Part shown: piece after piece, positions 518 to 11,101 of the stretch
Position numbering within the stretch: position 1 is the first letter of the stretch
Layout of the letters: each line of letters opens with the position of its first letter
Source of the DNA: a virus
Lineage: Duplodnaviria > Heunggongvirae > Uroviricota > Caudoviricetes
DNA: 11,101 nucleotides
Strand: one strand, 5' to 3'
Virus record (IMG/VR): IMGVR_UViG_2663763286_000016
Coordinates: 1-11,101 of that record
The notes under the pieces: model-generated
Told to the model about the DNA's origin: nothing
Databases searched by the model: none
Seen by the model: only the letters and a program-made list of their open reading frames with translations
Program-made: the position numbers and the translations under genes

Positions 518-709
518 TTAAAGACCTGCCGGGATTTCGATATTATCCTGGTGAATAACTTTATCGACCGGGTAACAGTTACCGGGAATTTTCTGTTCGG
601 TTGCTGCAGTCATACTCTCCTGCATTGTCCTGTGAACACTGACTGCAATATCAACTGCCTCTCCGGAAACAAGAAAAACTGTCAGAACAAGTGCAAATGC
701 TGTATTCAT
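518..709 (-). CDS. Small hypothetical protein (about 63 aa) with a hydrophobic signal-peptide-like or transmembrane N-terminus
   Basis: Internal start of track ORF 518..763. ATG at 709..707 has an AAGGA Shine-Dalgarno 8 nt upstream and overlaps the stop of the upstream ORF in an ATGA arrangement. N-terminus MNTAFALVLTVFLVSGEA is hydrophobic. Start is uncertain; 718 and 763 are alternatives. Confidence 0.4.
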   Translation of the reverse strand: MNTAFALVLTVFLVSGEAVDIAVSVHRTMQESMTAATEQKIPGNCYPVDKVIHQDNIEIPAGL

Positions 710-894
710 TGCCAGCATCCTTTTTGTATCGGACGTAAACGGGCCAACATTGAAAGAATGCATATTTTATTTAATAGCTCCCGTTCGTGTTTTCTCTTGT
801 TAATGGCATCTTCAGTAAATACAGGGTTACTGATAGTGACACCAATTTCAAAACAACCTTCAGACGTATTAACGTTTGGTAATAACGTTTCCAT
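706..894 (-). CDS. Small hypothetical protein (62 aa), translationally coupled to neighbours
   Basis: ORF track 706..894. GAGGA 7 nt upstream of the ATG at 894, overlapping the end of the Rha gene; its stop overlaps the next start (ATGA). No family recognised. Confidence 0.4.
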   Translation of the reverse strand: METLLPNVNTSEGCFEIGVTISNPVFTEDAINKRKHERELLNKICILSMLARLRPIQKGCWQ

Positions 895-904
895 TATCGC
901 GTCC

Positions 905-1462
905 TCAACAATGAATTTTTAGTAATTGCTCCACAGTCATATTTTTAATTGCGCTCCGGTTTACAAGAGTCCAGCCTTGTTTCTCCAGATAAAACTGGAA
1001 GGTATCCAGGGTGCAGACCATTGCGCCGTCCGGAACGGTTTCAGTGAATTTGATATTGCCGTGTTCGTCGAGACGGATAACCAGGGTACGTCCGTCCCCG
1101 TGAATCATTTTGTCGGGAGACGGGGCGTTATTCTGGCGCAGTTCTTTCTCCATGCGATCGAACTCAGCGATGTAGGCTTCTTTAAATGCAGCGGCTTTTT
1201 TGCTGGTGAAGCCCATCACCAGGAAAACGAAGCCGTTTTTGGTGATTTGGTACATTGGGAGTTTGCGACCGGTTGAGTCGGTATATTCGCTCGACACAAA
1301 ATTGTGCTCAGTGAATTTTGCTGAACAGTCCAGATTGCGAATTTTATCCAACACTCGTTCGTGGCGTTTACCAAAGAACTCAGCGATCGCAATAGACGTA
1401 GTGACAGCGCGTCCATTTTCGATGGTTACGTCAGGGTGAGAAAGGGTATGGATAGTAGCCAT
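905..1462 (-). CDS. Phage regulatory protein, Rha family (antirepressor-like), about 185 aa
   Basis: N-terminus MATIHTLSHPDVTIENGRAVTTSIAIAEFFGKRHERVLDKIRNLD...YQITKNGFVFLVMGFTSKKAAAFKEAYIAEFDRME matches the Rha-domain pattern as remembered. ATG at 1462..1460 with GAGG 8 nt upstream. The longer track ORF (to 1759) would read through an intrinsic terminator, so the shorter start is preferred. Confidence 0.8.
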   Translation of the reverse strand: MATIHTLSHPDVTIENGRAVTTSIAIAEFFGKRHERVLDKIRNLDCSAKFTEHNFVSSEYTDSTGRKLPMYQITKNGFVFLVMGFTSKKAAAFKEAYIAEFDRMEKELRQNNAPSPDKMIHGDGRTLVIRLDEHGNIKFTETVPDGAMVCTLDTFQFYLEKQGWTLVNRSAIKNMTVEQLLKIHC

Positions 1463-1491
1463 GATGGCAGCCTCGATAGTCAGTTTAAATA

Positions 1492-1531
1492 ACTCACCAC
1501 CAAGGCTTTCCACGACCATAAGGGTGGTGAG
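1492..1531. promoter_or_regulatory. 9-bp perfect inverted repeat (CTCACCACC ... GGTGGTGAG, 22-bp spacer) just upstream of the Rha start
   Basis: Read directly from the sequence at 1492-1500 and 1523-1531. Function as operator or RNA hairpin is unknown. Confidence 0.3.
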
Positions 1532-1630
1532 ACGTACAGGGGTGGAAATACCGGTGACTACCGAAACCGGCCAGCCTTTCGGCTGCCCTGCACGCCCCAC
1601 CATAATCTGAATGTGGCTGTGCATTACGCA

Positions 1631-1655
1631 TAAAAAAACCGCATGAGCGCGGTTA
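1631..1655 (-). terminator. Rho-independent terminator for leftward transcription
   Basis: On the minus strand: AACCGC-GCTCAT-GCGGTT hairpin (5-6 bp GC-rich stem) followed by a run of seven T (plus-strand A run 1632-1638). Lies between the pL-like operon and the Rha gene. Confidence 0.6.
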
Positions 1656-2297
1656 TGCGCAGTAGTCATCATCGGGTTTCCACGCCCGGCACCCGCTTTA
1701 TGAGGTGCAGGTGCACTATAATTCCACCCGTTCTGGTTTTCAATAGCTACATTCAACATTTTCTCTTACCCTTCATCACCGAAGTGAACTTTGTTGATGC
1801 AGTGCCTGGTGCCTCCAGGTGACGTTAACCAGTTAACAATTAACGCCGGATACAGAGAATCCACCCATAACACTGTTTTTGGTTTTAACTGTTCCGCGTG
1901 CGCTGAGCCGCATTCACCGCATCACAAAATTCACTTTAAAAAGGGCGGACATCAGTTCATGGGCAAACAGATGCCGCCAAACGTCACCAGAAAATTGATA
2001 ACAGAGGGCGTTGCAGCGGGGTTGTCACTTAAGCGTATGGTCAACCTGACAACCCGGTGTCCTCAACGGGGAAGGAATAACCCCGCCATACTTACCGCCG
2101 CGCCATTTCGCGGAGTGCCACAACCGGAAGCGCACGGTCGACGAAAATTTAACGACAGGCTATCTATGAACCAGCTACCTCGCCGTGCGCTTTCGCGTTA
2201 TGGTCTGACTTTTCAGGGAAATATCCTTTCAGTAAACTGTCAGTGCCGGATGCTTACCCGTGTCCGGCGCACGCACTCTACCTCACCCGTGAATAAA

Positions 2298-3004: not shown

Positions 3005-3412
3005 TTATTTTATTGATTTGTTTTTACGTGCTTTAAGCATTTCTTCGAAGAGTTTATTGAAATTCTCTACTCTTGCGCGCATTTCAGACAGTAAGGCTTC
3101 CTGCTCGGAGGAGGGAAGAGCATCGAATAATTCGATCAATTCTTTGTGGCTGGGAGTTAACTCGGTTTCCACATGAAGTTCTTGTGCTGGCACTGGTGCC
3201 TTGTCTTCGTCACCAAACATTAGCCATGTAGGCGAGCACTTCAGCGCATCAGCTAAAGCAAATAACCGCTTCCCGACCGGTTGGGTTTCGTCTCTTTCCC
3301 ATTGTGAAATTGTGACGTGAGCTACCCCAGCGAGGCGTGCAGCTTCTCGTTGTGTTAGGCGTAATTCTTTTCGTCGTGCCAGAACTCGCTGGCCTAGGGT
3401 TCTTGTATCCAT
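3005..3412 (-). CDS. Phage repressor, XRE-family helix-turn-helix, 135 aa, no S24 peptidase domain
   Basis: N-terminus LGQRVLARRKELRLTQREAARLAGVAHVTISQWERDETQP is a classic Cro/CI-type HTH. It is divergent from the cro-like gene. No Shine-Dalgarno before the ATG at 3412 and a TAGAAT -10 about 9 nt upstream suggest a near-leaderless transcript, as for lambda cI from pRM. Confidence 0.8.
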   Translation of the reverse strand: MDTRTLGQRVLARRKELRLTQREAARLAGVAHVTISQWERDETQPVGKRLFALADALKCSPTWLMFGDEDKAPVPAQELHVETELTPSHKELIELFDALPSSEQEALLSEMRARVENFNKLFEEMLKARKNKSIK

Positions 3413-3492: not shown

Positions 3493-3720
3493 ATGCTTAA
3501 AGTTGACGCAATTACTTTTTTTGGCAGCAAAACAAAACTTGCCAATGCCGCAGGAGTGAAACTGGCAAGTGTTGCTGCATGGGGGGAACTGGTTCCTGAA
3601 GGTCGCGCGATGCGCCTGCAAGAGGCATCCGGCGGGGAACTTCAGTACGACCCCAAAGTTTATGACGAATATCGTAAGGCAAAGCGGGCGGGGCGGTTGA
3701 ACAATGAAAATCACCCCTGA
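3493..3720 (+). CDS. Cro-like DNA-binding protein (YdaS-like), 75 aa
   Basis: ATG at 3493 with GAGGGGG 5 nt upstream (the track start at 3490 is TTG). Sequence LKVDAITFFGSKTKLANAAGVKLASVAAWGELVPEGRAMRLQEASGGEL fits the YdaS/Cro pattern as remembered. Position divergent from the repressor. Confidence 0.75.
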   Translation: MLKVDAITFFGSKTKLANAAGVKLASVAAWGELVPEGRAMRLQEASGGELQYDPKVYDEYRKAKRAGRLNNENHP

Positions 3721-4225
3721 ACAGGTTTGTGAGGCTCTGGATGCCTGGGTATGCCGACCAGGAATGACACAGGAGCAGGCGACGATATTAATCACGGAAG
3801 CATTCTGGGCTCTGAAAGAACGCCCGAACATCGATGTTCAACGCGTCACGTTTAATGATGGCGAGGTTGATCAACGGGCGTTGGGCGTTAACCGGGTGAA
3901 GATATTCGAACGCTGGAAAGCTATCGACACCAGGGATAAGCGGGAAAAATTCACGGCGCTGATTCCGGCAATTATGGAGGCTATCCGGATCAGCGATTTC
4001 AGGTTGTATTGTGAAATTACTGACGGAAAAAGCATTACGTACATGATCGCCGGGTTAAACAAAGAATATGGTGATGTGGTGGAGTCCGGGCTGCTTTTTG
4101 CGGATCCATCTGTTGTGGAACGTGAGACTGACGAGCTTATAGAAAAAGCTATTGCTTTCAAGCATGCGTATCGTCAGCAATACCAACAAAAAGCTGGATG
4201 GAATTATGAGCCTTCTTTTTGCTGA
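3704..4225 (+). CDS. YdaT-like / cII-position early regulator, 173 aa
   Basis: ORF track 3704..4225, overlapping the cro-like stop. Central ALIPAIMEAI region resembles YdaT-family proteins of the Rac prophage (recollection, moderate certainty). Confidence 0.65.
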   Translation: MKITPEQVCEALDAWVCRPGMTQEQATILITEAFWALKERPNIDVQRVTFNDGEVDQRALGVNRVKIFERWKAIDTRDKREKFTALIPAIMEAIRISDFRLYCEITDGKSITYMIAGLNKEYGDVVESGLLFADPSVVERETDELIEKAIAFKHAYRQQYQQKAGWNYEPSFC

Positions 4226-5045
4226 ACGCCCACTGGTTATAAACACACAGCTTGCGATGAAGATTGGCTTAAATGAAGCCATTGTGTTGCAGCAGTTGCA
4301 TTACTGGTTGAGAGATACCAGTTCCGGTATAGAATGTGACGGGGTTCGCTGGATTTATAACACAACAGAACAATGGCTGGAACAGTTCCCGTTCTGGTCA
4401 GAGTCAACGTTAAAACGCGCATTTGCAAGTCTGAAAACGCTGGGGCTTTTGCGTTGCGAAAAGCTCAACAAATCAAAGCGTGATATGACTAATTTTTACA
4501 CGATTAATTACGAGAGTGAGCTTTTAGATGGTGGCAAAGTGAGCGAATCCATCAGGTCAAAATGCGCCGCTCCATCAGGTCAAAATGACACGATGGAAGA
4601 GGTCAAAATGGCACGCTCCATTGGTTCAAAACGACCCAATGTCATCGGGTCAAAATGGCCTGATGATCTTACAGAGAATACAACAGAGATTACTACAGAG
4701 AATAAAAACACTTCTCGTCCGGAAGCTTCGCAACCGGACCCGCAGACGGCTGAACAGGATTTTTTAACCCGACACCCTGACGCGGTTGTGTTCAGTGCGA
4801 AAAAACGCCAGTGGGGAAGTCAGGAAGATTTGGCGTGCGCACAGTGGATCTGGGGACGAATCGTGAGTCTTTACGAGCAGGCTGCCAGCGATGATGGCGA
4901 GATCACGCGACCGAAAGAACCAAACTGGACCGCATGGGCCAATGACGTGCGCACAATGCGGATGCTGGATGGCAGAAGCCACAGACAAATTTGCGAAATG
5001 TTTGGTCGGGTACAGCGAGATCCATTCTGGGTAAAAACATCATGA
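4206..5045 (+). CDS. Replication initiation protein, lambda O-like, with the origin iterons inside the gene
   Basis: N-terminal winged-helix-like region (EAIVLQQLHYWLRDTSSGIECDGVRWIYNTTEQWLEQFPFWSESTLKRAFASLKTLGLL), then a linker that encodes the iteron array. Start uncertain: ATG at 4206 (MSLLF...) is preferred over the track start at 4152 to limit overlap with the upstream gene. Confidence 0.65.
   Translation: MSLLFAERPLVINTQLAMKIGLNEAIVLQQLHYWLRDTSSGIECDGVRWIYNTTEQWLEQFPFWSESTLKRAFASLKTLGLLRCEKLNKSKRDMTNFYTINYESELLDGGKVSESIRSKCAAPSGQNDTMEEVKMARSIGSKRPNVIGSKWPDDLTENTTEITTENKNTSRPEASQPDPQTAEQDFLTRHPDAVVFSAKKRQWGSQEDLACAQWIWGRIVSLYEQAASDDGEITRPKEPNWTAWANDVRTMRMLDGRSHRQICEMFGRVQRDPFWVKTS
4548..4657. 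repeat. Iteron array (about five direct repeats with core GGTCAAAATG, 22-25 bp spacing): probable replication origin
   Basis: Cores at 4555-4564, 4578-4587, 4601-4610, 4623-4633 (degenerate GGTTCAAAACG) and 4648-4657. The 17-mer TCCATCAGGTCAAAATG occurs identically at 4548 and 4571. Followed by an A/T-rich stretch with two TACAGAGAATA repeats (4670-4704). Confidence 0.7.
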
Positions 5046-5170
5046 GCCCGTCAAAGCTTCGCGAAAAATGGGACGACCTGGTCATCCGCCTGGGGCGTTC
5101 ACCTGTACAGTGTTGTGTGAATCATATTTCTGAACCGGATACCGAAATTCCGCCTGGTTTCAGGGGATAA
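5042..5170 (+). CDS. Small ORF (42 aa) overlapping the O-like stop (ATGA); possible remnant or small replication-associated protein
   Basis: ATG at 5042-5044 overlaps the TGA at 5043-5045. Translated by hand: MSPSKLREKWDDLVIRLGRSPVQCCVNHISEPDTEIPPGFRG. Below the track size cutoff. No family recognised. Confidence 0.3.
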   Translation: MSPSKLREKWDDLVIRLGRSPVQCCVNHISEPDTEIPPGFRG

Positions 5171-5210
5171 GTGGTGATTTTAGGGCATAAAGTAATGTTC
5201 AGGAGGACTT

Positions 5211-5618
5211 ATGGCAAAAGTATTTACAAAGGAAGAGCGGGAAAAAATTAAAGGACAGGTGGTGGAACTCGTGCGCCAGAGCGGTCGTGAGACGTTACGG
5301 CAACTGGAAGCTAAAACAGGTGCGACAAGATATCTGATGAGCGTTCTTGCCAGAGAGCTGGTTGCCAGTGGTGATGTATATCACTCTGGCTATGGGGTGT
5401 TCCCGTCAGAACGGGCTCGTAAGGACTGGCAAAACGCCCGCAAAAAACTCTCGAGGGCAAAGGTGAAGAAACCTGTTGTGGTTGATCCGGGCCTTATCTG
5501 GACATTACCCGACGGAGAAATACGCCGCTACGACAGGCGTATGAACATAATCTGTCGCGAGTGCCGGAAGAGCGAAGTTATGCAGCGTGTATTGGCGTTC
5601 TATCAGGGATATGCCTAG
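5211..5618 (+). CDS. Hypothetical phage protein, 135 aa
   Basis: ORF track 5211..5618 with a strong AGGAGG 4 nt upstream of the ATG. Basic protein; no family recognised. Confidence 0.65.
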   Translation: MAKVFTKEEREKIKGQVVELVRQSGRETLRQLEAKTGATRYLMSVLARELVASGDVYHSGYGVFPSERARKDWQNARKKLSRAKVKKPVVVDPGLIWTLPDGEIRRYDRRMNIICRECRKSEVMQRVLAFYQGYA

Positions 5619-5664
5619 AATTGTCACAGGTAATGAAATTAAAGAGTATTGGTTCGGATATGAA

Positions 5665-5693
5665 TTGACATTTTCGCGGCACAGAGCTAAAAA
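5665..5693 (+). promoter_or_regulatory. Candidate sigma70 promoter in the AT-rich region upstream of the SIR2-like gene
   Basis: TTGACA at 5665-5670, 17-bp spacer, TAAAAA at 5688-5693. The 370-bp intergenic region contains several other -10-like hexamers. Confidence 0.3.
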
Positions 5694-5986
5694 TAGCCTA
5701 CTTGTTGGTTTTGTGTGAAAAGCAGACATTTTGAGGCTCAGGATTTGTTATCAAATAAGACCAATACTTATCTATATTAATACACATTAAATACTGTGCA
5801 ATACATTATTGCATTTTATTAGATAAGCGATATTTAGGGAAAAGAAAAGTCATAGAAAACAGGCCGCTATTTGTTGTTGGATTTTATAGGCTATATCTAG
5901 ATTATCTTGCCACTGCGGTCTCTGTTTACCTAACAGCTTGGGCTTCTTTGCATGCAAGTTTGTAATAACAAGTGTAATCAAACGGA

Positions 5987-7018
5987 ATGTCTATTAATCC
6001 TAAACTTAAGCGTATCGCGCGACGCTATCCAGCGTTATTCCAATATGAGTCCCCCTATATGGCAAGAAAATTAATAATATTCGGCAACGGTCTCGGTATG
6101 GCTTTAGATCCTGCTCACTTCTCCTTAGACAGAGCGTTGGAAGAAATTTGGCATCGCCCCAATTTTTTAAAAGATATCCACAAGCAACTTATCGAGCGTT
6201 GTCTTCAGCGGCAAGGTCCACCAGAAGGAGAACATGAGTTGGATACCCTTCACCAGGCTGTCACATATTGTAAAGCTCTTGCTCAAATTGGAGAGGGGAA
6301 CGTGCATTGGCTTACTGACGATGGACTAAACTTCCCCAAAATTACCGCCACTTATATTCACAAAGTTGCAACCAGGTTGCATAATTACGATAAAGGTTTG
6401 CCACAAAGATTCGAAAATGCGCTTGTGGAGTTTGTAAAGAACACACACTCACATATCGCGACATTAAACTATGACAAATTATTATACAATTCATTCATAG
6501 ATAATGATATATTCAACGGGTATGATGGGGTTTTAGTTGATGGGATGCTAAGCCACGGATTTTCCTCTGCAGCGCTCGAACGGAAATACAATCGTAGGTT
6601 TGGTTATTATTTGCACTTGCATGGTTCACCACTATTTATTAATCAGCATGAAAATGTTTTAAAACTTTCACGCTCACAACTTACTCTTGACATAGATGAA
6701 CCTAGTGAGCATATAGTGTTAACTCATATAAAAAGAAAACCGTCAGTTATAGCAGCATCTAATGTTCTTTCTACGTACTGGGATTATTTGCAGTTTGCAT
6801 TATTTGAATCAGAAGAAATAATATTGTTTGGTTACTCTGGTCTCGATATTCACCTTAACCTGCTTATTCGACCTTACCTAACCTCTAAGCCTTTAAGAGT
6901 AATTGAGTGGAGCGGTGCTGGTGAACAAAACGCTCGTGAGATATATTGGAAAAACCAGTTGAGACGGGAAGTTACTGTAATTAGGTTGGATAACATCACT
7001 GATTTTATTGATTGGTAG
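5987..7018 (+). CDS. SIR2-like protein (SIR2_2 / defence-type sirtuin fold), 343 aa; candidate NAD-consuming defence effector
   Basis: Glycine-rich N-terminal motif LIIFGNGLGMAL, TLNYD motif (residues 159-163), HLHGS (210-214) and a C-terminal LFGYSGLD motif, matching the spacing and residues of SIR2_2-family domains as in ThsA/DSR proteins (from memory). The gene looks markedly AT-rich. Start uncertain: 5987 or the in-frame ATG at 6059. Confidence 0.65.
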   Translation: MSINPKLKRIARRYPALFQYESPYMARKLIIFGNGLGMALDPAHFSLDRALEEIWHRPNFLKDIHKQLIERCLQRQGPPEGEHELDTLHQAVTYCKALAQIGEGNVHWLTDDGLNFPKITATYIHKVATRLHNYDKGLPQRFENALVEFVKNTHSHIATLNYDKLLYNSFIDNDIFNGYDGVLVDGMLSHGFSSAALERKYNRRFGYYLHLHGSPLFINQHENVLKLSRSQLTLDIDEPSEHIVLTHIKRKPSVIAASNVLSTYWDYLQFALFESEEIILFGYSGLDIHLNLLIRPYLTSKPLRVIEWSGAGEQNAREIYWKNQLRREVTVIRLDNITDFIDW

Positions 7019-7088
7019 CGCAATGCGAAGTTAAAGAGGCAGCCTCATATTTATCAGAGCTGGTGTACGTCCAATACAGGAGGTTATC

Positions 7089-7178
7089 GTGCTGGTTCTC
7101 AAATGCGCGCTGGCTATTGCGGCTGTAGTGGCAATTTATTGTCTTGCTATTGTTCTTATGGATCGCCTTTCTGATTGA
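7089..7178 (+). CDS. Small hydrophobic peptide (29 aa, single predicted transmembrane helix)
   Basis: GTG at 7089 preceded by CAGGAGG with a 5-nt spacer. Hand translation VLVLKCALAIAAVVAIYCLAIVLMDRLSD, stop TGA at 7176-7178. Lies 70 bp downstream of the SIR2-like gene on the same strand. Not in the ORF track (too short). Confidence 0.45.
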   Translation: MLVLKCALAIAAVVAIYCLAIVLMDRLSD

Positions 7179-7279
7179 TTTTATATTGGCGAGGTGACGG
7201 GAGTTAAGTAGAATTGCTGCGGGTGCTTGAGGCTATCTGCCTCAGGCATGAACACCAAAAGGCAGATAGAGAAAAGCCC

Positions 7280-7342
7280 CAGTTAACATTACGCGTCCTG
7301 CAAGACGCTTAACATTAATCTGAGGCCATATCTATGCGACAC
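7280..7342 (-). ncRNA. Putative Sok-like antisense RNA (hypothetical; extent approximate)
   Basis: Candidate minus-strand promoter: TTGACC (plus 7376..7371), 16-bp spacer, GCTAAT (plus 7354..7349). This would start an antisense transcript covering the start of the short leader ORF, as in hok/sok loci. No clear terminator was identified. Confidence 0.2.
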
Positions 7343-7393
7343 ATAGAGATTAGCCTCTTACGGACCAAAAGGTCAAGGAGAAGCAGGCTATGA
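7334..7393 (+). CDS. Short leader ORF (19 aa) coupled to hok; mok-like by position
   Basis: ATG at 7334 sits inside a hairpin (TCTATG cgaca CATAGA). The TGA at 7391-7393 overlaps the hok ATG at 7390-7392. Confidence 0.3.
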   Translation: MRHIEISLLRTKRSRRSRL

Positions 7394-7545
7394 AGCAGCA
7401 AAAGGCGATGTTAATCGCCCTGATCGTCATCTGTTTAACCGTCATAGTGACGGCACTGGTAACGAGGAAAGACCTCTGCGAGGTACGAATCCGAACCGGC
7501 CAGACGGAGGTCGCTGTCTTCACAGCTTACGAACCTGAGGAGTAA
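7390..7545 (+). CDS. hokD: Hok/Gef-family type I toxin, 51 aa (matches HokD/RelF as remembered)
   Basis: Hand translation MKQQKAMLIALIVICLTVIVTALVTRKDLCEVRIRTGQTEVAVFTAYEPEE. AAGGAG 9 nt upstream. Upstream leader is rich in long-range complementary segments. Confidence 0.88.
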   Translation: MKQQKAMLIALIVICLTVIVTALVTRKDLCEVRIRTGQTEVAVFTAYEPEE

Positions 7546-7614
7546 GAGACCCGGCGGGGGAGTAATCTCCCGCCACCTCTGATGTGCCAGGCATCCTCAA
7601 CGCACCCGCACTTA

Positions 7615-7635
7615 ACCCGCTTCGGCGGGTTTTTG
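7615..7635 (+). terminator. Rho-independent terminator after hok
   Basis: CCCGC-TTCG-GCGGG hairpin followed by TTTTT. The identical 20-mer recurs at 9449. Confidence 0.7.
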
Positions 7636-7645
7636 CATTGTCTGG

Positions 7646-7674
7646 TTGACAAAAATAGAAAAATGCGAAAATAT
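7646..7674 (+). promoter_or_regulatory. Candidate promoter for the 216-aa / HTH-ImmA module
   Basis: Perfect -35 TTGACA at 7646-7651; the -10 is imperfect (AAATAT at 17 bp or TATGTG at 20 bp). Sits immediately after the first terminator copy. Confidence 0.35.
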
Positions 7675-7709
7675 GTGGTTTACGAATTCTAAAAAAAGCG
7701 AAACTTGAA

Positions 7710-8360
7710 ATGAATGAAAATCAGTTAGCTCCTTGTTGGGAATTTCAACCTTATCTTGCTGAAAACTATGTTCGCCACTTGTTGGCGGAGATCGCTAACG
7801 TACTTGAGCAGCTGTACTATCATAAGCACGCATTAGACAGCAACTGGTCTGAAGGTGTAAGGGCTTATGATTGGGTCAGAAATCATCTTATTCAAAATGA
7901 AGATGCAATTCCTGGCCTTGAGATGATTTCCAAGGGGTTGGACTATGTAGTTGCTTTAAATAAAGTTCCGCTACAATTTACCAAAGATTGCATTAATAAC
8001 CCCAAAAAGAAACATCGTCTGCGTCGAAATAAAGTAGAGTATGAGCAGCTCTCATTGTTTGGTGATGTTGAGGCTGAGCAAGATATTACATGGCGAGTCA
8101 TAGCTGAGCCTTTTTTATCCGAAGAGGGCGATGGTGAATTAGAGTCCACACTGCCTCGTTGGGAGGTAGCTCTTGTTGGATTTAATACTTATGGTGCTCA
8201 GATTAGTATAGTTTCTCATCAATCTACAGCATCGATGCCGCTTATGCCTCTTGATTATAACACACTCCCTGACGAAGCGGAGATTAATAAGGTGCCTCTT
8301 CGTCGGCGTACGAAGGATAAAGATTTGGATGTGAGCAGTGATGGAACATCAGGTGAATAA
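7710..8360 (+). CDS. Hypothetical protein, 216 aa, first gene of a two-gene module; contains a QLSLF pentapeptide
   Basis: ORF track 7710..8360. No family recognised. Residues 113-117 are QLSLF, flanked by a basic run (NPKKKHRLRRNK) and an acidic run. The 3' end overlaps the start of the next gene. Confidence 0.65.
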   Translation: MNENQLAPCWEFQPYLAENYVRHLLAEIANVLEQLYYHKHALDSNWSEGVRAYDWVRNHLIQNEDAIPGLEMISKGLDYVVALNKVPLQFTKDCINNPKKKHRLRRNKVEYEQLSLFGDVEAEQDITWRVIAEPFLSEEGDGELESTLPRWEVALVGFNTYGAQISIVSHQSTASMPLMPLDYNTLPDEAEINKVPLRRRTKDKDLDVSSDGTSGE

Positions 8361-9444
8361 CTTCACTGAGTATCGGGGTGATAAGCTCAAACTAGCGAGA
8401 ATGGCTGTTGGGCTTTCTTGTGAAGAGTTAGCCGAAAAAATTGGCAAGACAAAGCAATTCGTTAGCAAACTGGAGAAGGGGTGCAGGCCATCGGAGCAAT
8501 GTCTTGAGTTAATATCTTCAGCGCTTATGATTAAGTCCAGTTTTCTTTTTACTGAACGAAAATACGCTCTGGAAAGTGATGTCTGCCATTTTCGGAGTAA
8601 GAAGTCCAGGACTCAAACGCTGACTAATAGTGTATTGGCCAGGGCTGAGATTCTTAATATTATAATTTCTGCTGTTGAAGGTGAAATCGAATTTCCTGAC
8701 GTTAACATACCGGAGCACCCAGGGGCTGAATTACTTACTCCGAATGATATTGAGCGAGTGGCAGAAGATTGTCGCCGTGCCTGGAATTTAGGTCTTGGCC
8801 CTATATCATCAATGGTTAAATTGGCGGAGAGTTTAGGGGTAATCGTTGCGCATGTTACGGGAGTCGATGATCGTGTTGATGCTTTTACTGTTCACAATAA
8901 CAGGCCTGTTATCATCAGGAACAATGTTAAAAAAAGCATATGTAGATTTCGCTCTGATTTAGGTCATGAATTAGGGCATTTAGTAATGCATGAGGGCATA
9001 ACGACAGGTGATAAACTTACGGAATCACAAGCCGATCACTTTTCGAGCGCCTTATTAGTTCCCAGGTTATCTTTCATTAAAGAATTTCCACGAATACGAG
9101 GTAAGCAATTCGACTGGAATGCTCTGGTTGAATTTAAACTTAGATGGAAAATCAGCCTTAAAATGTGTATTTATCGAGCCAGCGCATTAGGCTTATTGAC
9201 CCAGGAACAGGCAAGAACTGGCTATATGCATCTTAATTCCAGAGGGTATACGAGAGTTGAACCTGGTGATGAACTTTTGCGCCCTGAAGAACCCGGCATG
9301 CTGGCCGAGGCGATTGAAATGCTGGATGATGCAACCTGGCTAAGAATTCTTATGAAAACTGGCTTGAGCCAAGATTTAATTCGTGAGTTGTTCTCCATCA
9401 ACAGACCTATTACAAATCCAAGAAATATTTTCCAGATTGTTTGA
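8341..9444 (+). CDS. Fusion of XRE-family HTH and ImmA/IrrE-type zinc metallopeptidase (COG2856-like), about 367 aa
   Basis: N-terminal HTH (LKLARMAVGLSCEELAEKIGKTKQFVSKLEKG) and an HEXXH motif (HELGH, residues 210-214, around nt 8965-8979). ATG at 8341; the track start at 8338 is GTG. Confidence 0.8.
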   Translation: MEHQVNNFTEYRGDKLKLARMAVGLSCEELAEKIGKTKQFVSKLEKGCRPSEQCLELISSALMIKSSFLFTERKYALESDVCHFRSKKSRTQTLTNSVLARAEILNIIISAVEGEIEFPDVNIPEHPGAELLTPNDIERVAEDCRRAWNLGLGPISSMVKLAESLGVIVAHVTGVDDRVDAFTVHNNRPVIIRNNVKKSICRFRSDLGHELGHLVMHEGITTGDKLTESQADHFSSALLVPRLSFIKEFPRIRGKQFDWNALVEFKLRWKISLKMCIYRASALGLLTQEQARTGYMHLNSRGYTRVEPGDELLRPEEPGMLAEAIEMLDDATWLRILMKTGLSQDLIRELFSINRPITNPRNIFQIV

Positions 9445-9448
9445 GTAT

Positions 9449-9475
9449 ACCCGCTTCGGCGGGTTTTTTGTTTTT
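9449..9475 (+). terminator. Rho-independent terminator after the HTH-ImmA gene
   Basis: The same CCCGC-TTCG-GCGGG hairpin, followed by TTTTTTGTTTTT. Starts 5 nt after the stop codon. Confidence 0.7.
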
Positions 9476-9488
9476 ATTTTCAACGTGT

Positions 9489-9518
9489 TTGAAGTTTTGG
9501 ACGGTGCCAGAATAGAAT
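9489..9518 (+). promoter_or_regulatory. Candidate promoter for the downstream genes
   Basis: TTGAAG at 9489-9494, 18-bp spacer, TAGAAT at 9513-9518. Confidence 0.3.
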
Positions 9519-9553
9519 CAAAAATACTTAAGTAGCGCGCAGGGAGAAGAGGG

Positions 9554-9862
9554 ATGGACCCCGAACAGGGGGAGTGCTATTTATCTGGAAGGATTCTGTT
9601 GATGAAAATCGAAGAATTACGTGAAATTTTTAGTGAAGATGGCCTCTATACTGTGCGCGTTGAGAATGGCGCTATTGTCAGCCACTGCCGTATTAAATGT
9701 TTACAGTCTCTACATAGGAAGAGTGGAGCTGCGTTAATTTACTTTGTGGATGGACTTGTGACGGATGGTTTTATTTTGCGTGAAAATGAATTTGTCACAT
9801 CATTGCAGTCTCTGAAAGAAGCTGGGCTTAAGGCTGGTTTTTCTGCTTTTGAAGATGAGTGA
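9554..9862 (+). CDS. Hypothetical protein (102 aa; 86 aa if started at 9602)
   Basis: ORF track 9554..9862. AGGGAG 7 nt upstream of 9554; alternative ATG at 9602 with GGAAGGA upstream. No family recognised. Confidence 0.5.
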   Translation: MDPEQGECYLSGRILLMKIEELREIFSEDGLYTVRVENGAIVSHCRIKCLQSLHRKSGAALIYFVDGLVTDGFILRENEFVTSLQSLKEAGLKAGFSAFEDE

Positions 9863-9928
9863 ATTCATCTACAATTCAGCGCAGGACTGAACCCCTGTTG
9901 AGTAACACTGTGCCACCGGAGAAAGCCG

Positions 9929-10207
9929 ATGGCGCAAAATTCCAGATCACACAATTCTGATAATTCAGCCGTCTTTGCCAGCAGGCACGGGCGGCGCTCT
10001 CACGCATTTAAATCTGATTGGTACCAGCATCCCCCATGCACTGAAGAACAGGCCGAATGGCTGATTCAGTGTTACCGCAGGCGCGGATACGAGGTTAAGA
10101 AAGCCCTCAGTCTCGATTATCGTCACTGGATAATCTCTGTCAGGCTTCCTTATTCCGAACGCCCACCGCGTCCGTCCCGCACATTCCAGCAACGCATCTG
10201 GAGGTAA
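9929..10207 (+). CDS. Hypothetical prophage protein, 92 aa (sits where rem lies in Qin-like prophages)
   Basis: ORF track 9929..10207. GGAG 7 nt upstream. Its stop lies 1 nt before the start of the next gene. Confidence 0.55.
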   Translation: MAQNSRSHNSDNSAVFASRHGRRSHAFKSDWYQHPPCTEEQAEWLIQCYRRRGYEVKKALSLDYRHWIISVRLPYSERPPRPSRTFQQRIWR

Positions 10208-10208
10208 C

Positions 10209-11101
10209 GTGCGGGTATTACTTCGACCGGTTCTGGTACCGGAACTCGGGCTGGTGGTCCTTAGGCCGGGCCGTGAATCCATGCAAGTATTTCATAACCC
10301 TCGAGTGCTGGTGGAGCCTGAACCGAAAAGCATGCGCGGTCTGCCGTCCGGAGTCGTCCCTGCCGTTCGCCAGCCGCTGGTGGAAGACAAAACATTGCTG
10401 CCGTTTTTCAGTAACGCACGGGTGATTCGTGCTGCTGGTGGTGCTGGTGCATTGTCTGACTGGCTGTTGCGCCATATTAAATCCTGCCAGTGGCCACACG
10501 GCGATTATCACCATAGTGAAACCGTCATTCACCGTTATGGTACCGGCGCAATGGTGTTGTGCTGGCACTGCGACAACCAGCTGCGTGACCAGACATCCGA
10601 ATCACTCGGGCAACTTGCTCATCAAAACCTGTCAGCATGGATGATTGACGTCATACGCCATGCAATGAATGGCACGCAGGAGCGGGAATTGTCGCTGGCT
10701 GAATTATCCTGGTGGGCGGTCTGCAATCAGGTGGCGGACGCGCTTCCGGAGGCAGTATTACGTCGTTCTCTGGGGTTACGTGCGGAAAAAATCCGCTCCT
10801 TGTACCGCGAAAGCGACATCGTACCGGGAGAGCAGACCGCCATCAGCATACTGAAACAGCGCACAAAAAATCTTGCGCCGCTGCCTCACACCCACCAGCA
10901 ACAGAACCCACCACAGGAAAAGACGGTGGTCAGCATTGCCGTTGATCCGGAGTCTCCGGAATCCTTCATGAAACGACCTAAACGTCGCCGCTGGGTAAAT
11001 GAGAAATACACACGCTGGGTAAAGACACAGCCGTGTGCGTGTTGTGGTAAGCCAGCGGACGATCCTCATCATCTGATTGGTCATGGTCAGGGTGGAATGG
11101 G
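10209..11101 (+). CDS. DUF968 / YdfU-like prophage protein, 5' portion; gene continues beyond the window end
   Basis: GTG at 10209 with GGAGG 4 nt upstream. Open frame to the window end, translated by hand with no stop (VRVLLRPVLVPELGLVV...CACCGKPADDPHHLIGHGQGGM). The Cys/His-rich C-terminal motif and overall sequence resemble YdfU-type proteins as remembered. Not in the track because it lacks a stop. Confidence 0.65.
   Translation, partial: MRVLLRPVLVPELGLVVLRPGRESMQVFHNPRVLVEPEPKSMRGLPSGVVPAVRQPLVEDKTLLPFFSNARVIRAAGGAGALSDWLLRHIKSCQWPHGDYHHSETVIHRYGTGAMVLCWHCDNQLRDQTSESLGQLAHQNLSAWMIDVIRHAMNGTQERELSLAELSWWAVCNQVADALPEAVLRRSLGLRAEKIRSLYRESDIVPGEQTAISILKQRTKNLAPLPHTHQQQNPPQEKTVVSIAVDPESPESFMKRPKRRRWVNEKYTRWVKTQPCACCGKPADDPHHLIGHGQGGM

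Follow-up and report, generated by a model that had tools for sequence, protein, structure and literature searches.

A mobile, self-contained SIR2-like gene in a lambdoid prophage slot as a candidate one-gene phage-defence cassette

SIR2-type hydrolases of nicotinamide adenine dinucleotide (NAD), or NADases, are among the most widespread immune effectors, and to our knowledge every well-understood one is switched on by a fused sensor domain or by a partner protein. The locus described here raises the question of what such a fold may do when its gene travels alone. It lies in a stretch of 11,101 nucleotides (nt) of the virus record IMGVR_UViG_2663763286_000016 (the window; positions refer to this whole stretch), which constitutes the early/regulatory region of a lambdoid (Qin/933O-like) prophage and has Escherichia albertii NBRC 107761 as its best public match. 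Between a DUF977 gene and the hok/sok toxin-antitoxin module, the window carries a SIR2-like gene. We propose that this self-contained cassette encodes an immune-type ('SIRim'/SIR2_2) single-domain SIR2 protein that would act as a one-gene, NAD-depleting phage-defence module, a reading in which we have moderate confidence.

The SIR2-like gene and its predicted fold

The SIR2-like open reading frame (ORF) is a real gene, well beyond what chance would produce, since the family counts 794 homologues, the ratio of non-synonymous to synonymous substitutions (dN/dS) is 0.08-0.16 and no indel interrupts the 319 codons anywhere between E. coli and Vibrio. Across the 120 best homologue matches, which span genera, identity stays at or above 56%. 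Residues are numbered here on the 343-residue longest ORF (Table 1); the family-wide start, used by most relatives and by RefSeq, is M25 (window 6059), which leaves a protein of 319 amino acids (aa). The original prediction had read a set of defence-type SIR2 motifs from this ORF (FGNGLG, TLNYD, a downstream His and GYSGLD), and all of them are present, at F32-G37, T159-D163, H210/H212 (in LHLHGS) and G282-D287. These motif residues are the most conserved positions when 233 family members, with 32-99% identity to the window protein, are aligned: G33, N34, G35, G37, T159-D163, H210-P215 (H-L-H-G-S-P), G282, Y283, G285 and D287 are each conserved in at least 95% of the members.

The predicted fold of the window protein is clearly of the SIR2_2 type. 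The AlphaFold2 model (mean predicted local distance difference test, pLDDT, 87.9; predicted template modelling score 0.87; pLDDT just 64-71 for residues 1-30) was matched by Foldseek to 8uae_B with an E-value of 8e-11, the top match named being PsSIR2 (8W9L). The Pfam SIR2_2 profile (PF13289), a search proposed with the original prediction, gives residues 156-302 a score of 26.1 bits (E 1e-5), slightly over the cut-off of 24.5, and scores of relatives range from 22.7 to 29.9 bits; the predicted SIR2_2-like nature of the protein is thus upheld by a Pfam score just over the cut-off and by a clear fold match. The core architecture comprises a SIR2 Rossmann fold with its glycine-rich NAD loop (GNG), the catalytic-type residues N161, D163 and H210, the GYSGxD motif and a helical small domain. 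In PsSIR2, N163, D165 and H212 are the putative catalytic residues, and a small domain autoinhibits the NADase, its deletion activating the enzyme (PMC11472057). N161, D163 and H210 occupy nearly the same positions, with an identical spacing of 49 residues, and the all-helical insertion at residues ~47-153 is equivalent to the PsSIR2 small domain. This insertion and the loop 227-250 are the most variable parts (mean column entropy 2.26-2.27) of a protein that is otherwise under strong constraint; the GNG loop and catalytic segment (residues 25-226 minus the small domain) have values of 1.3-1.6, and the C-terminal part of the Rossmann fold has 1.95. The protein is not a canonical sirtuin of the CobB/Sir2 type, because it has no match to PF02146 and no Cys4 zinc ribbon, just two Cys being conserved.

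An autonomous cassette in a variable prophage slot

The gene belongs to a self-contained, horizontally acquired cassette of ~1.3 kb. Its extent is given by a second locus (L090), in which a homologue 87-89% identical (P0002) lies in an unrelated chromosomal islet with TacAT and IS110. The gene and ~350 nt of upstream non-coding DNA are shared with L090 at 78% identity, and since this homology runs from ~5710 to 14 nt past the stop codon, the mobile unit can be placed at ~5710-7032. The adenine- and thymine-rich (AT-rich) composition remarked on in the original prediction is borne out, with a guanine-cytosine (GC) content of 38.1% in the cassette (5710-7032) and 34.0% in the non-coding stretch 5619-5986, against 47.1% in the remaining window. 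In many genomes the gene is likewise richer in AT than its host, with GC fractions of 0.376 versus 0.604 in Klebsiella, 0.428 versus 0.641 in Pseudomonas oryzihabitans and 0.410 versus 0.513 in Serratia. The proposal of a recently acquired moron cassette is consistent with these values, with the self-contained nature of the unit and with its recurrence in the unrelated context of L090.

No gene accompanies the family as a whole. When the ORFs on either side of the gene were clustered for 77 loci, taken from different species, no neighbour family recurred in more than 4-5 of them, so that the comparison of homologue neighbourhoods proposed earlier yielded no conserved partner. Pfam and PADLOC scans of the 141 immediate neighbours, reported here for the most frequent families, gave a scattered assortment of AAA_21/AAA_15 ATPases, type I restriction-modification components, mad3, HNH nucleases, helix-turn-helix (HTH) regulators, integrases, MvaT and housekeeping genes; AAA_21, among the commonest, accounts for four neighbours, and HerA, TIR and Argonaute are absent from these most frequent families. 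Likewise, Pfam and PADLOC detected no HerA, TIR or SLOG among the window proteins. In V. parahaemolyticus (L101:7851-9092, GCA_029348105.1), the homologue makes up an integron cassette by itself, a single ORF in 1120 nt with attC-like repeats of ~120 nt on both sides, 1.3 kb from an IntI-type integrase and adjoining CcdAB and Mrr_cat cassettes. Other homologues lie in defence-like surroundings, in Serratia with SoFic (E 4e-119) on one side and a 680-aa AAA_16/PDC-M36A-like protein on the other, and in Chromohalobacter in an island with HipBA, NYN, Fic/RhuM and AbiEi/AbiEii. A search of 1.84 billion representative proteins returned 357 relatives; the best 150 of them do not exceed 397 aa, and the full-length ones measure about 310-400 aa. 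Only one plasmid-borne homologue was found (in Marinobacter), and there was none among 50,697 records of sequenced phages by tblastn nor in BFVD by fold.

The slot between DUF977 and hok is a variable cargo hotspot, and the SIR2 gene in it has the features of a prophage moron, or cargo gene. The window reads cI-like, cro-like, YdaT, O-like, DUF977, SIR2 and hokD, and the K-12 Qin prophage reads dicA-dicC-...-relB-relE-hokD; the K-12 comparison thereby corroborates the earlier statement that the gene occupies the position where Qin carries relBE. DUF977 flanks the slot in the phages Tritos, HannyBb, Evi and mEp460_ev081 (annotated LygF) and in thousands of E. coli prophages, and the cargo differs from one to the next (Table 1), including PD-T7-1, a system validated by Vassallo et al. 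Further cargos, from a spread sample of E. coli genomes, are a P-loop ATPase (Sll1717 family), DUF5677, an S-adenosylmethionine-dependent methyltransferase with DUF7167, an alpha/beta hydrolase and ParA, among others. The SIR2 segment itself is present in 46 of 5426 complete E. coli genomes, and parts of the flanks in 4878. In E. coli O55:H7 the arrangement is identical (96.5% identity over window 3586-11101) and the gene is annotated as a 'SIR2 family protein' of 319 aa. As a separate observation, the PD-T7-1 and PDC-S15/FRG cargos are annotated just as 'hypothetical' in their phage records.

The original prediction placed the gene immediately upstream of hok and allowed it no obvious partner apart from a 29-aa peptide. 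The hok-side position is right, yet a 29-aa ORF and the sok/hok leader intervene; the gene is indeed compact and devoid of a family-wide partner, but the 29-aa ORF is unrelated to it. This ORF was rejected as a SIR2 partner because Tritos (90%) and HannyBb (79%), both of which are without SIR2, preserve it next to sok/hok on the upstream side, with conservative substitutions. It is strongly hydrophobic and may be a gene for a small membrane peptide; it is without annotation in the records examined.

The predicted feature at 5620-7018 has likewise to be divided, as the ORF in its right part is real and 5620-5986 is non-coding. Small ORFs at 5698-5787 (minus strand), 5850-5981 (minus) and 5952-6074 (plus) were discarded, and 5710-5986 is considered non-coding, because indels of 15 nt and 4 nt relative to L090 break their frames. 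An Rfam scan of 5710-5986 returned no match, and for the conserved leader 5959-6070 the idea of a riboswitch or other structured RNA found no support (z-score -0.09, no covariation, no Rfam match). A sigma-70 candidate, TTGACA-18-AAAAAT at 5665-5694, is not relied on because it lies outside the conserved cassette. Located 5' of the family-wide start, a ten-codon element, R-I-A/V-L-R/H-Y-P-x-L-F (window 6026-6055), occurs in the enterobacterial subclade only, and its codon changes are of the wobble type (CGT/AGA, TAT/TAC, CCA/CCT, TTA/CTA, TTC/TTT). The E. coli copy shares its frame with an ATG located 24 codons upstream, which gives the 343-aa ORF; the Klebsiella copy is likewise in frame, but neither ATG nor GTG comes after the stop codon that precedes it; the Serratia copy is shifted out of frame and resembles an upstream ORF ending 12 nt before the main ATG. 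The element may act as an extension of the N-terminus, as a leader peptide or at the DNA level.

Table 1. Coordinates and properties of the features discussed. Plain numbers are window positions; those with an L number lie in the comparison locus so numbered.
Feature	Coordinates	Strand	Details
SIR2-like gene, longest ORF	5987-7018	+	343 aa; residues 1-24 are a subclade-specific extension including the conserved R-I-A-L-R-Y-P-x-L-F
SIR2-like conserved core	6059-7018	+	319 aa; RefSeq WP_000101550.1 'SIR2 family protein'
Upstream part of SIR2 cassette	5710-5986	+	~34% GC, non-coding; presumed promoter/regulatory; carries 10-bp palindrome TTGCATGCAA
Right boundary of cassette and variable slot	7033-7046	.	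L090 homology stops 14 nt past stop codon; Tritos/HannyBb homology begins at 7036-7046
DUF977 gene, conserved left flank	5211-5618	+	last of replication module; Pfam DUF977 E 4e-29
29-aa hydrophobic ORF	7089-7178	+	MLVLKCALAIAAVVAIYCLAIVLMDRLSD; GTG start, AGGAGG Shine-Dalgarno; part of hok-side flank
hok/sok type I toxin-antitoxin, intact	7221-7545	+	sok/leader 7221-7392 (Rfam sok 107.5 bits, full length); hokD 7390-7545 (Pfam HOK_GEF E 1e-23)
RmrT and RmrA	7710-9444	+	RmrT 7710-8360 (PADLOC E 4.6e-25), RmrA 8338-9444 (E 6.2e-105); RosmerTA-type; Pfam HTH_3 and Peptidase_M78
Late-regulation genes			downstream of RmrA
DicB	706-894	-	
865-nt insertion vs K-12 Qin	920-1784		between dicB and DicF; carries C4, isrK and a Rha-domain ORF
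C4 antisense RNA	1520-1607	-	79 bits
isrK	1632-1708	-	64 bits
DicF small RNA	1943-1992	-	43.5 bits vs Rfam gathering score of 48 bits
cI/DicA-like repressor	3005-3412	-	then cro-like gene, YdaT, O-like replication protein
Cargo, phage mEp460_ev081	L096:2262-3611	-	PD-T7-1 (PADLOC E 4e-157)
Cargo, phage Tritos	L089:2219-3553	-	PDC-S15/FRG-domain protein (E 1e-98)
Cargo, phage Evi			HTH regulator and acetyltransferase
Cargo, phage HannyBb			methyltransferase fragment and QueH
Cargo, K-12 Qin			relBE, directly upstream of hokD
Alphaproteobacterial ~200-aa upstream gene	L049:7381-8037; L059:7445-8047; L066:~7417-8016; L070:7402-8001; L076:6362-6973		

On the right flank, the homology of K-12 Qin (L087:7030-7289) to the hokD region covers window 7376-7635 only and begins 14 nt before the start codon. 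Qin is therefore without the sok/mok leader that is intact in the window, and it follows that the relBE insertion abuts and truncates the hok regulatory region. The RmrT/RmrA pair is context and lies outside the SIR2 unit; since it comes right after hok, the prophage contains a small group of defence and toxin genes made up of SIR2, hok/sok and RmrTA. Phage Tritos likewise has this pair behind hok. Towards the left end of the window, a 284-aa ORF at 905-1759 overlaps both C4 and isrK, so that its 5' part, which matches Pfam Phage_ASH, may be non-coding; DicF is missed by a default Rfam scan because its score is below the gathering score.

Proposed function and competing explanations

The protein most likely binds NAD+ in its zinc-less Rossmann fold and would hydrolyse it to adenosine diphosphate (ADP)-ribose and nicotinamide via N161, D163 and H210. 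If the SIR2 subunit of SIR2-HerA is a guide, the enzyme would probably be kept autoinhibited by its helical small domain until infection by another phage released it, possibly through oligomerisation; the resulting depletion of NAD+ would abort the infection, to the benefit of the lysogen. We infer this scheme as a whole, that is the NADase chemistry, the small-domain autoinhibition, the trigger, the oligomeric state and the anti-phage phenotype; what the analysis itself establishes is the gene, its predicted fold, its conserved catalytic residues, its lack of a family-wide partner, its mobility and its place in the hotspot. Phage defence appears the most likely role because the SIR2 gene stands alone in a slot that holds other anti-phage or toxin-antitoxin genes in related phages. 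An NADase-based defence is favoured, moreover, by the fold, by the arrangement of the catalytic residues, by the lack of a sirtuin-type zinc module, by the precedent of sole-Sir2 (see below) and by the variability of the small domain and of the loop 227-250.

A number of results weigh against this proposal. The SIR2-profile scores are borderline, NCBIfam and PHROGs profiles gave no match for the protein, and a PDB sequence search (phmmer and a 113-sequence profile) retrieved nothing relevant, fold comparison alone being successful. PADLOC, in a 2023 copy of its profile set that is incomplete, assigned the protein to no system. The matches that it returned, weak (17-24 bits) but in register, to Aga_SIR2, PDC-S21 and SIR2 (PDLC04093), the last of these a 395-position SIR2 model about as long as the SIR2 chains of SIR2-HerA, count for the SIR2 fold. 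The family is also unusually conserved for an immune sensor (dN/dS ~0.1). The closest structural relative depends on HerA for its activation, and the window contains no HerA. Homologues in Klebsiella, Aeromonas and locus L095 are solitary insertions among housekeeping genes, and in three Rhodobacteraceae (L069:6688-7977, L077:6665-7954, L079:6665-7954) the homologue lies 43-92 nt downstream of pncB on the same strand. The product of pncB is nicotinate phosphoribosyltransferase, an enzyme of NAD salvage; the adjacency could be a chance insertion site or a functional link to NAD. It is this strong conservation, together with the several housekeeping-like contexts, that calls for caution on the defence reading. 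Finally, SliP of Campylobacter jejuni, a DUF4917 protein, is reported to be a secreted deacetylase of host histones (PMC10421069).

The last point leads to a different explanation, in which the protein would be a sirtuin-like protein-modifying enzyme (lysine deacylase or ADP-ribosyltransferase; cf. SliP, SirTM) tuning host or prophage physiology. Relatives score 22.7-27.9 bits against DUF4917 (PF16263) over almost their full length (P0024 27.9, P0021 25.6, P0120 22.7), all below the 28-bit gathering threshold, and in public annotation the label is sometimes 'DUF4917 family' and sometimes 'SIR2 family'; the window protein has no DUF4917 match at E <= 0.01. A role on host histones is ill-suited to a prophage or integron cassette of free-living Proteobacteria, and we consider this explanation unlikely. 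Should it be true, a function would be assigned to a DUF4917-like family that is conserved and mobile. It has equally to be asked whether the protein acts as an effector together with the product of another gene, either a HerA-like sensor/activator or an antitoxin. Such a partner could lie nearby, with DUF977, the 29-aa peptide, hok/sok and RmrTA as candidates, or elsewhere in the genome. The requirement of the closest structural relative for HerA speaks for this, as do two lineage-specific additions. In five alphaproteobacterial loci, a gene for ~200 aa lies directly upstream of SIR2 on the same strand (gap -1 to 43 nt); its products are 27-74% mutually identical, belong to no Pfam or PADLOC family and look like a subclade-specific partner. 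In two Vibrio proteins (P0042, 506 aa; P0044, 541 aa), the SIR2 homologue has gained an N-terminal domain of ~190-220 aa; these domains share 30% identity (E 8.5e-12), have no Pfam match and are not seen as a separate gene in any other locus. A Rosetta-stone link between this Vibrio domain and the alphaproteobacterial gene was rejected (hhalign probability 0.2%). The upstream gene and the Vibrio fusions show that the family does have accessory modules. However, no neighbour in the window accompanies the homologues elsewhere, DUF977, the 29-aa ORF, hok and RmrTA are all found in phages without SIR2, the alphaproteobacterial protein has no tblastn match in the window or any other locus, and the Vibrio integron cassette carries the SIR2 ORF alone; an obligate partner thus seems improbable to us.

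The gene might also be selfish, acting through addiction or toxicity, or it might simply be carried along, silenced or neutral, without any part in phage defence; an example would be a constitutively toxic NADase whose AT-rich cassette is under H-NS-type silencing. Its AT-rich composition and that of its upstream region are consistent with this, together with the toxin-antitoxin neighbours found in several contexts (hok/sok, RmrTA, TacAT, CcdAB, HipBA) and the MvaT-type silencers near the homologue in two loci. Yet the low dN/dS and the perfect conservation of length point to a selected protein function, no conserved cognate antitoxin was found, and many defence systems occupy exactly such contexts, so that we give this possibility little weight. 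Within the defence reading itself, a more specific and tentative version can be formulated, which we hold as possible but doubtful: a minimal autonomous SIR2 immune protein, with a Nezha-type core without HerA, in which the small domain (~100 aa) or the enterobacterial upstream peptide would serve as both autoinhibitor and sensor, to which other lineages would add modules, and which would spread through prophage hotspots and integrons. The unusually high conservation would then point to the sensing of a conserved host-state signal (such as a metabolite or an NAD-related cue) and not of a fast-evolving phage protein.

If the one-gene NADase defence proposed here is confirmed, a stand-alone SIR2 protein of 319 aa would be the simplest sensor-effector of its class and a tractable model for the on/off control of a bare fold. 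The DUF977-hok/sok slot is itself a productive defence hotspot of lambdoid prophages, in which further systems could be looked for. Because PADLOC does not call the SIR2-like gene as a system, its census of defence systems overlooks genes of this sort. The SIR2-likeness of the gene is already stated in its RefSeq annotation. As far as an incomplete coverage of the literature goes, no paper deals with this family or with WP_000101550.1; the protein is unmentioned in Vassallo 2022, in the metagenomic selection paper and in the domain-centric E. coli screen (from which single genes were excluded), and no mention occurs in the accessible parts of the DefensePredictor text and supplements.

Comparison with known SIR2 systems

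A catalogued single-gene candidate of similar length is PADLOC PDC-S21, whose 336-position profile is matched in register and nearly over the full length by family members. The window protein scores 23 bits (E 1e-5, residues 26-230) and relatives up to 28.9 bits, the family range being only 19-29 bits (E 1e-5 to 2e-7); with such weak scores PDC-S21 would be a sister family at best. It is itself an unvalidated candidate, and no mention of it was found in the literature.

DSR1/DSR2, Thoeris ThsA, the SPARSA SIR2, Avs5 and Kongming KomC possess a fused sensor or ligand domain (SLOG, STAND or a large C-terminal region) or obligate partners (ThsB, pAgo, KomA/B), whereas the window protein and its locus have none of these domains or partner genes. 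ThsA combines its SIR2 with a C-terminal SLOG/STALD or Macro domain and has a TIR neighbour (ThsB), and DSR1/DSR2 are proteins of ~1000 aa with an N-terminal SIR2 and a big C-terminal sensor; the window protein, in contrast, is 319-343 aa long, consists of the SIR2 fold only and has no PADLOC Dsr match. Sole-Sir2 is a single-protein, CRISPR-supervised SIR2 system whose protein is an NADase and a homologue of which protects E. coli against T2 and T4 (bioRxiv 10.1101/2024.12.27.630466). It provides a precedent for SIR2 action without a separate partner gene. By its description, however, sole-Sir2 is set apart, with ~440 aa, an N-terminal putative sensor domain and a DSR2-like C-terminal SIR2, whereas the window protein has 319 aa, the SIR2 fold throughout and its nearest likeness in the SIR2-HerA type.

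The closest structural relative of the window protein is the SIR2 subunit of SIR2-HerA (Nezha; PDB 8w9l, 8j4u, 8uae), although their sequence identity is 14-17% and profile searches do not link them. That subunit forms a dodecamer, and the window protein was compared with it by its predicted monomer fold only. HerA is not a conserved neighbour of the SIR2 homologues in the 77 loci, nor does it accompany the single-ORF Vibrio cassette. The architecture described here is not a new kind of system; it is that of a SIR2-HerA-type SIR2 protein without HerA, mobile as a single gene.

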